Shown piece after piece: positions 7,951 to 11,295 of a DNA stretch of 32,000 nucleotides. The stretch covers positions 2,653,800 to 2,685,799 of the forward strand of contig NC_018178.1 of the NCBI RefSeq assembly GCF_000279145.1. The letters are read 5' to 3'. Numbering within the stretch: position 1 is the stretch's first letter; every line of letters starts with the position of its first letter. The notes beneath the pieces are model-generated. The model was not told the DNA's origin. It saw nothing but the letters and a program-made list of their open reading frames with translations, and did not search any database. The DNA is from Melioribacter roseus P3M-2 (lineage in GTDB: Bacteria > Bacteroidota > Ignavibacteria > Ignavibacteriales > Melioribacteraceae). The position numbers and the translations under genes were made by a program.

Positions 7951-7975
7951 TTTTTGCCGGTTTTCTTATTGAAAT

Positions 7976-8028
7976 GTCGTCGACCTCCCGGGGATTTTGC
8001 ACTATCGGGGGTCGACGACGTTGTTTTA
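7976..8028 (+). terminator. Rho-independent terminator of the oxidoreductase operon
   Basis: A 13-bp GC-rich stem (GTCGTCGACCTCC / GGGGGTCGACGAC, with one G-T pair) is followed by GTTGTTTT. Confidence 0.8.
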
Positions 8029-8036
8029 AAAAAATG

Positions 8037-8065
8037 TTGCATTTATGAACTAAAATGTTGATATT
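8037..8065 (+). promoter_or_regulatory. Candidate CRISPR leader promoter (TTGCAT-N17-GATATT)
   Basis: Sigma70-like hexamers sit in the roughly 50-bp AT-rich leader between the terminator and the first repeat. This is sequence resemblance only, and FCB-group promoters may differ. Confidence 0.25.
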
Positions 8066-8072
8066 TTAACGG

Positions 8073-9492
8073 GTTTTAATCGCACTATTGTAGAATTGAA
8101 ATCTGTTTCCGACGTTTGTTGTTCCGTCGTTTGTTGTTGTTTTAATCGCACTATTGTAGAATTGAAATTTCGCAAAAGCGGAATTAGTCTCTGTGATTGC
8201 AACTCGTTTTAATCGCACTATTGTAGAATTGAAATTATCTTTCTATGTATGCTTTCTCTCGTGCTCTATCCGTTTTAATCGCACTATTGTAGAATTGAAA
8301 TATGCTCAACACATGGTATATGTGTATATGCGAAAACAGTTTTAATCGCACTATTGTAGAATTGAAATTAATTTACAAGCCCGTAGTCAAGCCCGCAAAA
8401 TTCGTTTTAATCGCACTATTGTAGAATTGAAATACGAAATGAAAATTTACAACATAGAACTCGATTACGTTTTAATCGCACTATTGTAGAATTGAAATAA
8501 CAATTCCACCCAGCCCGACGGCTCTCGCCTTCTCGTTTTAATCGCACTATTGTAGAATTGAAATATGGCAGCGAGTCGTTCGTCGTCGATTTCCTTAGCG
8601 TTTTAATCGCACTATTGTAGAATTGAAATAATCGACGATAAGCGAAATTGCGGAGGACTACGGCTGTTTTAATCGCACTATTGTAGAATTGAAATTATCT
8701 TTCTATGTATGCTTTCTCTCGTGCTCTATCCGTTTTAATCGCACTATTGTAGAATTGAAATATGCTCAACACATGGTATATGTGTATATGCGAAAACAGT
8801 TTTAATCGCACTATTGTAGAATTGAAATATATATGAGACATTGCGTCGGCGGATATTCTTCTCCGGGTTTTAATCGCACTATTGTAGAATTGAAATCTTA
8901 GTAAAACGTGGGAATATATCAGTGCGCTGGGAGTTTTAATCGCACTATTGTAGAATTGAAATAACACATGCTAATCATATTAGAAGAAACGCCCGGGTTT
9001 TAATCGCACTATTGTAGAATTGAAATGTACGGACAACCGCCAGAACATTATTATCTATTCGAGTTTTAATCGCACTATTGTAGAATTGAAATGCGCTACT
9101 TCTGCATGCGATTATCAGAATCGAGTCTGAGTTTTAATCGCACTATTGTAGAATTGAAATGAATACGATAATCCGTATGGAGACAAAGCGCTTTCGCGTT
9201 TTAATCGCACTATTGTAGAATTGAAATGCATTACGCCGTATTTGTCGAAGTCCAGTTTTTCGCGTTTTAATCGCACTATTGTAGAATTGAAATAGTTTTA
9301 CGTAAACAAGAAGGTTGTACAGAGGATATGTTTTAATCGCACTATTGTAGAATTGAAATGTCTTGTCTTTCGCTATTACTGCGCCTTCAAGTCGCGTTTT
9401 AATCGCACTATTGTAGAATTGAAATTTGTTATCTTGCGGACGCTATGTAAATCCTCTCTAATGTTTTAATCGCACTATTGTAGAATTGAAAT
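8073..9492 (+). CRISPR. CRISPR array: 22 identical 30-bp repeats plus a degenerate 23rd repeat at 9529, with 22 spacers of 34-38 bp (20 unique)
   Basis: The repeat GTTTTAATCGCACTATTGTAGAATTGAAAT starts at 8073, 8139, 8206, 8272, 8339, 8404, 8469, 8535, 8600, 8666, 8732, 8799, 8867, 8933, 8997, 9063, 9131, 9198, 9264, 9330, 9396 and 9463. The + orientation is inferred from the ATTGAAAT 3' end (a Cas6-type 8-nt handle, as in type I-B/III families) and from repeat degeneration at the right end. Confidence 0.97.
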
Positions 9493-9528: not shown

Positions 9529-10650
9529 GTTTTAATCGCACCCGACTCTGACGGGTAGAATTGCCCCGCTTGCAGCGGGGTCTCCGTTCGTCCGTCATTC
9601 GACGGACTCACTTCGAAAATCCGAACTACAAAATTGTCATGCTGTTATGGTTTTAATCGCACCCGACTCTGACGGGTAGTATTATTTTGCCGGCGCTGAT
9701 TTTATCGAAGTGATAGTCCTGTCAGGTTCAAGCGGTCGCTGAGCTTGTCGAAGCGACTTCGTTCGTCCGTCATTCGACGGAATCACTTCGAAAATCCGGA
9801 CTACAAAATTGTCATGCTGTTATGTTTTAATCGCACCCGACTCTGACGGGTAGTATTATTTTGCCGGTCGCTGAGCCTGTCGAAGCGATAGCCCTGTCAG
9901 GTTCAAGCGGTCGCTGAGCCTGTCGAAGCGAAGATTGTGTCCCGTAAAAGTCTACAAGTTTGTAAAAGCAATGTAAGAAAAAATCATTCTACAGAATTAG
10001 AGGATAGTCTTATTGCATCAGAGCGGTCGCTGAGCCTGTCGAAGCGACTACGTTTGTCCGTCAGTCGACGGACTCACTTCGAAAATCCGGACTACAAAAT
10101 TGTCATGCTGTTATGTGTTAATCGCATCCGACTCTGACGGGTAGTATTATTTTGCCGGTTGCTGAGCCTGTCGAAGCGAAGATTGTGTCCCGTAAAAGTC
10201 TTCAAGTTTGCAAAAGCATGTAAGAAAAGAAACATTCTACAGAATTAGAGAATAGTCTTATTGCATCGGAACGGTCGCTGAGCCTGTCGAAGCGACTACG
10301 TTCGTCCGTCATTCGACGGACTCACTTCGAAAATCCGTACTACAAAATAGTCATGCTGTTATGCGTTAATCGTACCCGACTCTGACGGGTAGTATTATTT
10401 TGCCGACGCTGATTTTATCGAAGCGATAATCCTGACAGGTTCAAGCGGTCGCTGAGCTTGTCGAAGCGACTACGTTCGTCCATCAGTCGACGGACTCACT
10501 TCGAAAATCCGGACTACAAAATTGTCATGCTGTTATGTTTTAATCGCACCCGACTCTGACGGGTAGTATTATTTTGCCGGTCGCTGAGCCTGTCGAAGCG
10601 ATAATCCTGTCAGGTTCAAGCGGTCGCTGAGCTCTTCGTTGCGATTTTCT
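9529..10650 (+). repeat. Tandem array of six composite units, each headed by a variant CRISPR repeat (GTTTTAATCGCAC-CCGACTCTGACGG-GTAG..)
   Basis: Variant repeats start at 9529, 9650, 9824, 10115, 10363 and 10537, giving unit lengths of 121, 174, 291, 248 and 174 bp plus a truncated last unit. The units share the modules GGTCGCTGAGCCTGTCGAAGCGA, GTCCGTCATTCGACGGAC and CACTTCGAAAATCCGGACTACAAAATTGTCATGCTGTTAT. No reading frame is conserved between copies. Confidence 0.9.
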
Positions 10651-10696
10651 GCAAACTCCACTCCGAAAAATCGATATAAAAAACTTCCTGAACAAT

Positions 10697-10808
10697 TTGG
10701 CAATCTTGCAATTTGGTAATTTGGTAATCTTGCAATTTTGTAATTTGGTAATCTTGTAATTTGGCAATCTTGCAATTTGTCAATAAACAAATTTGGCAAT
10801 TAACGAAT
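10697..10808. repeat. Imperfect 8-bp-periodic tract (about 14 units of TTGGYAAT / CTTGYAAT)
   Basis: The tract reads TTGGCAAT CTTGCAAT TTGGTAAT TTGGTAAT CTTGCAAT TTTGTAAT TTGGTAAT CTTGTAAT TTGGCAAT CTTGCAAT TTGTCAAT AAACAAAT TTGGCAAT TAACGAAT. It ends 38 nt before the ATG at 10846. Confidence 0.85.
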
Positions 10809-10845
10809 TACTTTCATAGCTTGCTTCATAAAAACGGAGTAAGGT

Positions 10846-11295
10846 ATGAAAAAAAGCGATAAACCGATTATTGTCGAACAGGTTTTTAATGCAAGCAGAA
10901 CCGATGTATGGAATGCCCTTACGGATATTGACGAAATGAAAAAATGGTATTTCGAAAACATTCCCGCTTTTGAGCCCGTCAATGGTTTTAAAACTAGCTT
11001 TAACGTGATTAGCAATGGAAGAAATTTTTTGCATAAATGGGAAGTTACCGAAGTTATTCCCGAAGAACGTATTGCATACACTTGGCGGTTCGAGGGTTAC
11101 GGCGGACTGTCGACGACGGATTTTTTTCTAAAAGAAGAAAACGGAGGCGTACGATTGATTCTTACAGTTACCGTACAGGAAGATTTCCAGGAAAATATCG
11201 AGGAATTCAAAAGAGAAAGCTGCATCGGCGGATGGAATTATTTTATTAACGAAAGACTCAAAAACTATTTGGAATCAATAATCAGAAAGGACTAA
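10846..11295 (+). CDS. SRPBCC / AHSA1 (Activator of Hsp90 ATPase homolog 1-like) family protein
   Basis: About 149 aa, with the family's typical N-terminus (..IIVEQVFNASRTDVWNALTD..MKKWYF) and a C-terminal GGW..FINERLKNYLE region. GGAG lies 8 nt upstream of the ATG. Confidence 0.7.
   Translation: MKKSDKPIIVEQVFNASRTDVWNALTDIDEMKKWYFENIPAFEPVNGFKTSFNVISNGRNFLHKWEVTEVIPEERIAYTWRFEGYGGLSTTDFFLKEENGGVRLILTVTVQEDFQENIEEFKRESCIGGWNYFINERLKNYLESIIRKD

Follow-up and report, generated by a model that had tools for sequence, protein, structure and literature searches.

The stretch of DNA analysed here (the window) comprises 32,000 nucleotides (nt) of the Melioribacter roseus P3M-2 genome, a single 3.30-Mb contig with 41% GC in which the genome paper counted three CRISPR loci, one of them an orphan (PMC3534657). 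The window holds an orphan array of type I-B type (array 1) on the + strand at 8073–9492, consisting of 22 identical canonical 30-nt repeats, GTTTTAATCGCACTATTGTAGAATTGAAAT, and spacers of 35–38 nt. Matches to GTTTTAATCGCAC at ≤2 mismatches number 27, compared with a shuffle mean of 1.6, and none of 100 shuffles reached this count. The array is preceded by a leader (7975–8072, + strand) with a conserved long hairpin, GTCGTCGACC...GGTCGACGAC, and an AT-rich stretch. Because this hairpin also precedes the second, cas2-adjacent array of the genome (array 2), as it does the arrays of relatives, the direction of array 1 can be assigned to the + strand. Within array 1, a two-spacer block occurs twice (8236–8338 and 8696–8798), which points to repeat-mediated segmental duplication in the live part of the array as well. 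Array 2 has 16 repeats that differ from the canonical array-1 repeat at two positions, and it adjoins cas6, a cas8b-like gene, cas7, cas5, cas3, cas4, cas1 and cas2, a gene set that identifies it as type I-B; the same cas6-cas8b-cas7-cas5-cas3-cas4-cas1-cas2 operon is the cognate one for array 1. Between cas4 and cas1, this operon also encodes a 121-aa 23S rRNA intervening-sequence protein (four-helix bundle, PF05635/TIGR02436; L008 1723–2088, − strand).

Downstream of the 22 canonical repeats, the TATT of the repeat is replaced by CCGACTCTGACGG in six variant copies, which start at 9529, 9650, 9824, 10115, 10363 and 10537. The six exact matches to CCGACTCTGACGG compare with a shuffle mean of 0.45, and no shuffle reached this number; the copy at 10363 is more diverged in its 5′ part (GCGTTAATCGTAC). 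The first copy (9529–9563, + strand) begins 36 nt past repeat 22, in register as a 23rd repeat, and is composed of the 5′ 13 nt of the repeat, the 13-nt insert (hairpin at 9540–9556) and GTAGAATTG. The insert lengthens the AC/GT pairs of the repeat, which form a tiny central stem, into a 5-bp stem (ACCCG/CGGGT) with a 7-nt loop, predicted to fold at about −8 kcal/mol compared with −2.5 kcal/mol for the canonical repeat. In silico, the variant hairpins remain folded at 55 °C, whereas the canonical repeat does not. The fourth copy carries a C-to-T change in the stem (ATCCG...CGGGT) that still permits a G-U pair in RNA. Each feature listed in the original prediction, made from the letters of the sequence, is present, including the 3′ continuations of the variants (GTAGAATTGCCCC in copy 1 and GTAGTATTATTTTG in copies 2–6). 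Both the 13-mer and the longer variant core are confined to the two CRISPR trailers of the genome, with none scattered elsewhere, so the insert is not a generic REP/MITE, an origin that the same prediction had named as refuting its reading.

Two other claims hold in part. The 3′ handle, which had been described as lost, is indeed changed in copy 1, but the repeat there is interrupted after ATTG by a two-hairpin module ending in ...CGAAAAT rather than simply shortened. Likewise, the variants are repeat-derived and the first of them is in register, but copies 2–6, which had been presented as further CRISPR repeats, arose by tandem duplication of a trailer unit; they lie 121–291 nt apart with paralogous filler between them and are neither regularly spaced nor separated by unique spacers. 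As in degenerate terminal repeats, the final repeat departs from the array consensus, and this departure takes the form of a conserved structured insert. The variant repeat has lost both the native mini-stem and the AAAT of the handle, and a cas6 gene is present in the genome.

The module that follows copy 1 (9564–9620, + strand) consists of a first hairpin (hp1, 9564–9580), the sequence CGTTCG, a second hairpin (hp2, 9590–9607) and the motif TCACTTCGAAAAT (9608–9620). Next comes a 29-nt pseudo-spacer (9621–9649, + strand), which in the block map occurs five times in all, with further copies at 9796, 10087, 10335 and 10509; no full or seed match to it was found in the genome above chance. The region 9650–10623 (+ strand) is made of duplicated trailer units containing variants 2–6, four more blocks of hp2, motif and pseudo-spacer, ten hairpins of the GCTGAGCYTGTCGAAGC type (hpA) and two 93-nt AT-rich inserts, located in units 3 and 4. 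Tandem Repeats Finder and a repeat finder placed copies 2–6 within tandem units with periods of 174, 248 and 291 nt and 91–93% identity, and the block map resolved the parts of a unit as hp2 (GTCCGTC-ATTC-GACGGAC), the motif, one pseudo-spacer, one variant repeat and 1–3 copies of hpA. Minus-strand promoter-like sites (TCGACA-17-AATAAT) overlap copies 2–6 and were treated as chance, being conserved neither in array 2 nor in the sister species. Farther downstream, a tract with an 8-nt period (CAATTTGG/CAATCTTG) occupies 10693–10809, directly upstream of an AHSA1/SRPBCC gene at 10846; it is conserved, with a changed order of units, at the orthologous site of the sister species (L011, about 1210–1090, − strand).

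The same kind of structure was found when further arrays were searched, with hairpin-type variant trailers in array 2 and in the sister species and other mid-repeat hairpins in relatives. At the end of array 2, the repeat is canonical up to GTAGAATTG and is followed by CCCCGCTTACAGCGGGG (hp1), hp2 and the motif. The trailer continues beyond the motif for about 1.2 kb and contains seven variants of the form ATTAATCGTAC-CCGAC(NNN)GACGG-GTAGAATTG with hpA copies between them; the loops of these variants differ (ACTCCGA, ACGCCGA and ACACGTC) and the pairing is kept. The sister species, Melioribacter sp. Ez-97 (G116; Cas1 96% identical), has both orthologous loci. Its orphan array ends in an in-register variant followed by hp1, where the assembly breaks, and the remainder of the trailer leads to the same downstream gene as in P3M-2; its cas-linked array ends in hp1, hp2 and the motif together with two variants. 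The two species share zero spacers and retain the terminal structure, and the pseudo-spacers of the two arrays are homologous to each other and to those of the sister species. In its 5′ part, the variant tracks the repeat polymorphism of its own array (GTTTT in P3M-2 array 1, GTCTT in the sister), which indicates recombination between live repeats and the variant and thereby explains the in-register junction. Two other genomes of the genus are too diverged in DNA for an empty-site comparison.

We aligned 13 units of the module from six genomes (P3M-2, Ez-97, OK-6-Me, G117 and the MAGs Uz-U4-16 and PL25a). Both hairpins carry compensatory changes, with double changes at 5 of 19 predicted pairs; one pair of hp2 occurs as four pair types, and other pairs switch from GC to CG or from CG to UA. 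The single-stranded CGTTCG and CTCACTYCGAAAAT are invariant throughout the alignment. A covariance model built from these units was searched against 151 genomes of the family and 80 Cas1 relatives. Strong matches in the family genomes lie solely beside this repeat family (genera g1, g46, g44 and g15) and all on the repeat strand, so that at least four Melioribacteraceae genera carry the module in a fixed orientation relative to the repeats; no strong matches were found in Firmicutes, Thermotogae and other loci among the 80 Cas1 relatives. A scan of metagenomes added one further array end with the module, next to a more distant repeat and again on the repeat strand (L268), and two other matches that are due to chance. 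Nine identical weak matches (29.5 bits) are scattered over one genome, G144 (for example, L242 and L249), and are probably an unrelated dispersed hairpin repeat. No Rfam 15 family was found in either trailer, the canonical repeats alone giving sub-threshold CRISPR-DR matches at E ≤ 1, and we found no description of hairpin-swollen repeats or of the hp1–hp2 module in the searchable literature.

In its fuller versions the module gains two hairpins, one nested and one (CCCGC...GCGGG) lying directly against the next repeat. A mid-array position of the module, between repeat positions 1–26 and repeat positions 3–30 and with ordinary repeat-spacer units after it, is seen in G126, G117 and Uz-U4-16. 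The terminal AAAAT of the module might be the displaced end of the repeat, but this is no more than a hypothesis, since the distances to the next repeat (29–54 nt) do not match spacer lengths.

In other relatives, repeat positions 11–17 are occupied by different GC-rich hairpins. OK-6-Me and G117 have CCCGTCAAAGACGGG and 1–4 tandem GTCCGTCAGAGTCGGAC units at this mid-repeat site, the terminal repeat of G122 has CCCGTTAAACGGG there with its handle intact, G125 has GTCTGCCTTTGGCAGAC and PL25a a long hairpin, and in an Ignavibacteriaceae MAG the last three repeats contain, at this site, 16-nt inserts that fold poorly. The G117 hairpin is found nowhere but in the two CRISPR loci of that genome. 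Reverse-complementing the core of the OK-6-Me unit, CCGTCAGAGTCGG, gives exactly the M. roseus insert, and the occurrence of one hairpin with a flipped loop suggests that it is the stem, not the sequence of the loop, that counts and that hairpin dynamics operate at the DNA level. The cas-linked array of OK-6-Me (L016 11507–12140, next to cas2) has collapsed to swollen repeats and modules; just one canonical repeat is left, with one or two plausible spacers, and its leader-proximal repeat is composed of the 5′ part, the hairpin and CGAAAAT. Another Melioribacteraceae genome has a different trailer (L039 14340–15600), made of tandem modules of about 330 nt with repeat pieces (TTATTAATCGA... and ...CTACAGAATT) and long hairpins. 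Variant repeats were not found in viral contigs, where the search returned chance ORF matches and a few solitary or mini arrays of the canonical family. These virus-borne solitary repeats or two-repeat mini-arrays are at L169 (about 6154, − strand), L171 1681–1760 and L164 13312–13334.

The hpA hairpins have a different distribution. Their loop, CTGAGCYTGTCGAAG, occurs in 73 of 301 sampled genomes of the phylum, a single genome having as many as 41 copies; a reversed-pattern control gave a count near zero. Given this dispersal, we conclude that the trailers have been colonised by a REP-like element. The P3M-2 genome has 19 copies, 15 of which are in the two CRISPR trailers. The others include copies at a type I restriction locus, where hpA (loop TGAGCYTGTCGAA) is inserted in frame twice in hsdR and at the start of hsdS (N-terminal ...DTEPVEVSE...); the coordinates outside the trailers are C1:1493460, 1494255 and 1497932–1497964 (L143 2957–2975, 3752–3770 and 7433–7465), and also C1:160579. 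The stems of the copies in the restriction genes are unrelated in sequence and covary, and a Y1 transposase gene (C1:1495730–1496074) lies between the hpA copies of the hsdR/hsdS locus. It looks as if hpA is a REP/RAYT-type element that tolerates coding insertions, and its copies were probably the sites of the recombination that produced the tandem duplications of the trailers.

The fixed orientation of the module, its invariant single-stranded motifs, its covariation and its restriction to arrays together argue for a role at the level of the transcript, or at least a directional one, and against pure decay. The interpretation that we tentatively prefer, while rating it slightly short of an even chance, is that the variant repeat bounds a cis-acting RNA end module that caps or ends the array transcript. 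Under this interpretation, the variant would be a CRISPR repeat in which the loop of the central mini-stem has been swapped for a GC-rich hairpin, and it would form the repeat-derived boundary of an array-specific structured module (hp1, hp2 and CTCACTYCGAAAAT, then a short tail or two more hairpins) that occupies the old end of Melioribacteraceae type I-B arrays and at times an internal position. In P3M-2, one unit of pseudo-spacer, variant repeat and module would have been amplified five-fold by unequal recombination, largely between copies of the REP-like hairpin in the trailer, and recombination within the shared 13-nt 5′ part would have joined the trailer to the live array, placing copy 1 in register. 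The module would be co-transcribed with the pre-crRNA, and its hairpins, including that of the variant repeat, might act in cis on the RNA, either ending the transcript or blocking 3′-to-5′ exonucleases, and so give either the last crRNA or the whole transcript a defined, stable 3′ end. With the native 3-bp stem beside the cleavage site destroyed, Cas6 probably binds the variant repeat but does not normally cut it.

Several observations do not sit easily with an end module. The U-tract is limited to some copies of one strain, a plain terminator or cap leaves the invariant single-stranded motifs unexplained, and the mid-array copies in G126, G117 and L017 precede normal-looking repeat-spacer units, which a strong terminator would silence. 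The inversion of the insert loop between close relatives fits hairpin dynamics in DNA, and copy number varies widely among close strains. Mismatches in the stems have no clear strand bias, with G-U outnumbering A-C by 15 to 6 in one tally and standing at about 4 to 5 in another.

Some of these same observations would be expected if the trailers were functionless, with old-end repeats, free of selection, gathering hairpins and REP-like elements and unequal recombination multiplying the mixture. We consider this possible but rather unlikely. The phylum-wide dispersal of the GCTGAGCYTGTCGAAGC hairpin against a near-zero control, its in-frame copies in hsdR and hsdS near a Y1 transposase gene, the strong copy-number differences between close strains, the inverted insert loop and the segmental duplication within array 1 itself are all consistent with such decay and selfish DNA. 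However, neither the hp1–hp2–motif module nor the mid-repeat hairpins are dispersed, the orientation of the module is constant, and compensatory changes and invariant single-stranded motifs persist across genera whose Cas1 proteins are just 72–80% identical.

A third explanation treats the module as a passenger, a discrete structured non-coding RNA acting in trans, for example by binding Cas proteins. Melioribacteraceae type I-B arrays would then carry a dedicated structured RNA gene, cut from the pre-crRNA by Cas6 like a spacer, with release at the upstream GTAGA^ATTG and with the hairpin of the downstream variant closing the 3′ end against the trimming that type I-B crRNAs undergo. The framing of the module fits this idea, since it always lies between an upstream repeat (positions 1–26) and a downstream repeat 5′ part, mid-array as well, and the downstream repeat very often contains a hairpin. 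Its fixed orientation and the four covarying hairpins of the fuller versions are also in keeping with a discrete RNA, the dose of which would rise with the five tandem copies in P3M-2. Yet hairpins 3 and 4 are missing from the short version in the window, and strains differ in copy number from 1 to 7; we judge a passenger RNA to be improbable.

The original prediction had suggested that each variant repeat is an intrinsic terminator of pre-crRNA transcription. In its favour, copies 2–6 were flagged as terminator-like on the + strand in a lax hairpin-plus-T consensus scan, a result that also counts towards the end module. The stems are just 5–6 bp, however, and the T-run is interrupted in these copies and missing from copy 1, array 2 (GTAGAATTGCTTAGC) and the sister species (GTAGAATTGTTTTAGC, where 9 nt separate the Us from the stem). 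Since the U-tract is limited to copies 2–6 of P3M-2, terminator function is not a conserved property, and a row of five terminators after an earlier hairpin would be superfluous; we regard this reading as very unlikely. Antitermination through boxA was also considered and rejected: the rrn boxA of the genome reads GTTCTTTGA(C/A)A, the likeness of the module motif CACTTCGAAAAT to it is loose and a look-alike in the leader is not conserved. Least credible of all, to the point of being hardly tenable, is an RNA of the CreA/CreR type, a crRNA-like regulator or antitoxin in which degenerate repeats would enclose a conserved pseudo-spacer directing Cascade to a genomic site of partial match. A conserved 29–32-nt pseudo-spacer does lie, in a type I-B host, between the variant repeat and the ...CGAAAAT tail, but the idea fails for want of a target, genomic full and seed matches being at chance level and the sole inverted match, in the 8-nt tract at 10733–10748, showing no co-variation in the sister species. 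The tail and the 8-nt handle disagree at 4 of 8 positions, the element is at array trailers and not in the cas operon, and hairpins replace the pseudo-spacer in the fuller versions.

Variant repeats at array ends are usually dismissed as decay, and the structure described here is conserved, covarying and strand-specific. It accompanies a single repeat family across several genera and persists even where the spacers have turned over completely. If transcribed, an end module of the kind we prefer may exemplify the formation of a stable 3′ end on guide precursors by a type I-B system in a thermophile; alternatively, the arrays may carry and process a non-guide RNA, and, should the passenger explanation be true, CRISPR arrays would be expression and processing platforms for non-guide RNAs. 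For annotation, such trailers mislead CRISPR finders and break assemblies, as in the sister genome.

Repetitive extragenic palindromes (REP/BIME elements) are mobilised by RAYT Y1 transposases and stabilise the 3′ ends of upstream mRNAs in Escherichia coli. Like them, the trailer hairpins are short, GC-rich and arranged in tandem clusters at the ends of transcription units, and the GCTGAGCYTGTCGAAGC hairpin in particular is REP-like, being dispersed, with covarying stems and a conserved loop, in a genome that has a Y1 transposase gene. Unlike REPs, the 13-nt insert and the hp1–hp2 module are confined to CRISPR loci and occur in one orientation. In CRISPR-associated transposons and in the CreA/CreR RNAs of type I-B systems, atypical repeats near the array frame a conserved, non-immune 'spacer'. 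Variant repeats likewise frame a conserved non-immune 'spacer' here, but a target was not found, toxin or transposon genes are not evident and the framed sequence is a folded module, not a guide.

Substrates of type I-B Cas6b enzymes of the Methanococcus and Clostridium type are repeats with almost no structure apart from a 3-bp stem adjoining the cut, and they carry an 8-nt handle, ATTGAAAN. The canonical repeat of M. roseus fits this description, since it ends in ATTGAAAT and its CTA/TAG mini-stem stops one base short of the expected cut, whereas the variant has a 5-bp stem ending 3 nt before the expected cut and a handle interrupted after ATTG. A further comparison is with degenerate terminal repeats at the old end of arrays. 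As in those, the variant is leader-distal, its last 4 nt are lost (...ATTG for ...ATTGAAAT) and it is kept despite spacer turnover. Unlike random decay, it has a structured insert at a fixed mid-repeat site that is kept across species and recurs in other genera, and it differs from such repeats in being accompanied by a conserved, covarying module and in its possible position mid-array. We view the hairpin-swollen repeats as a variant of the known divergent terminal repeats, with a modest chance that they are something more.
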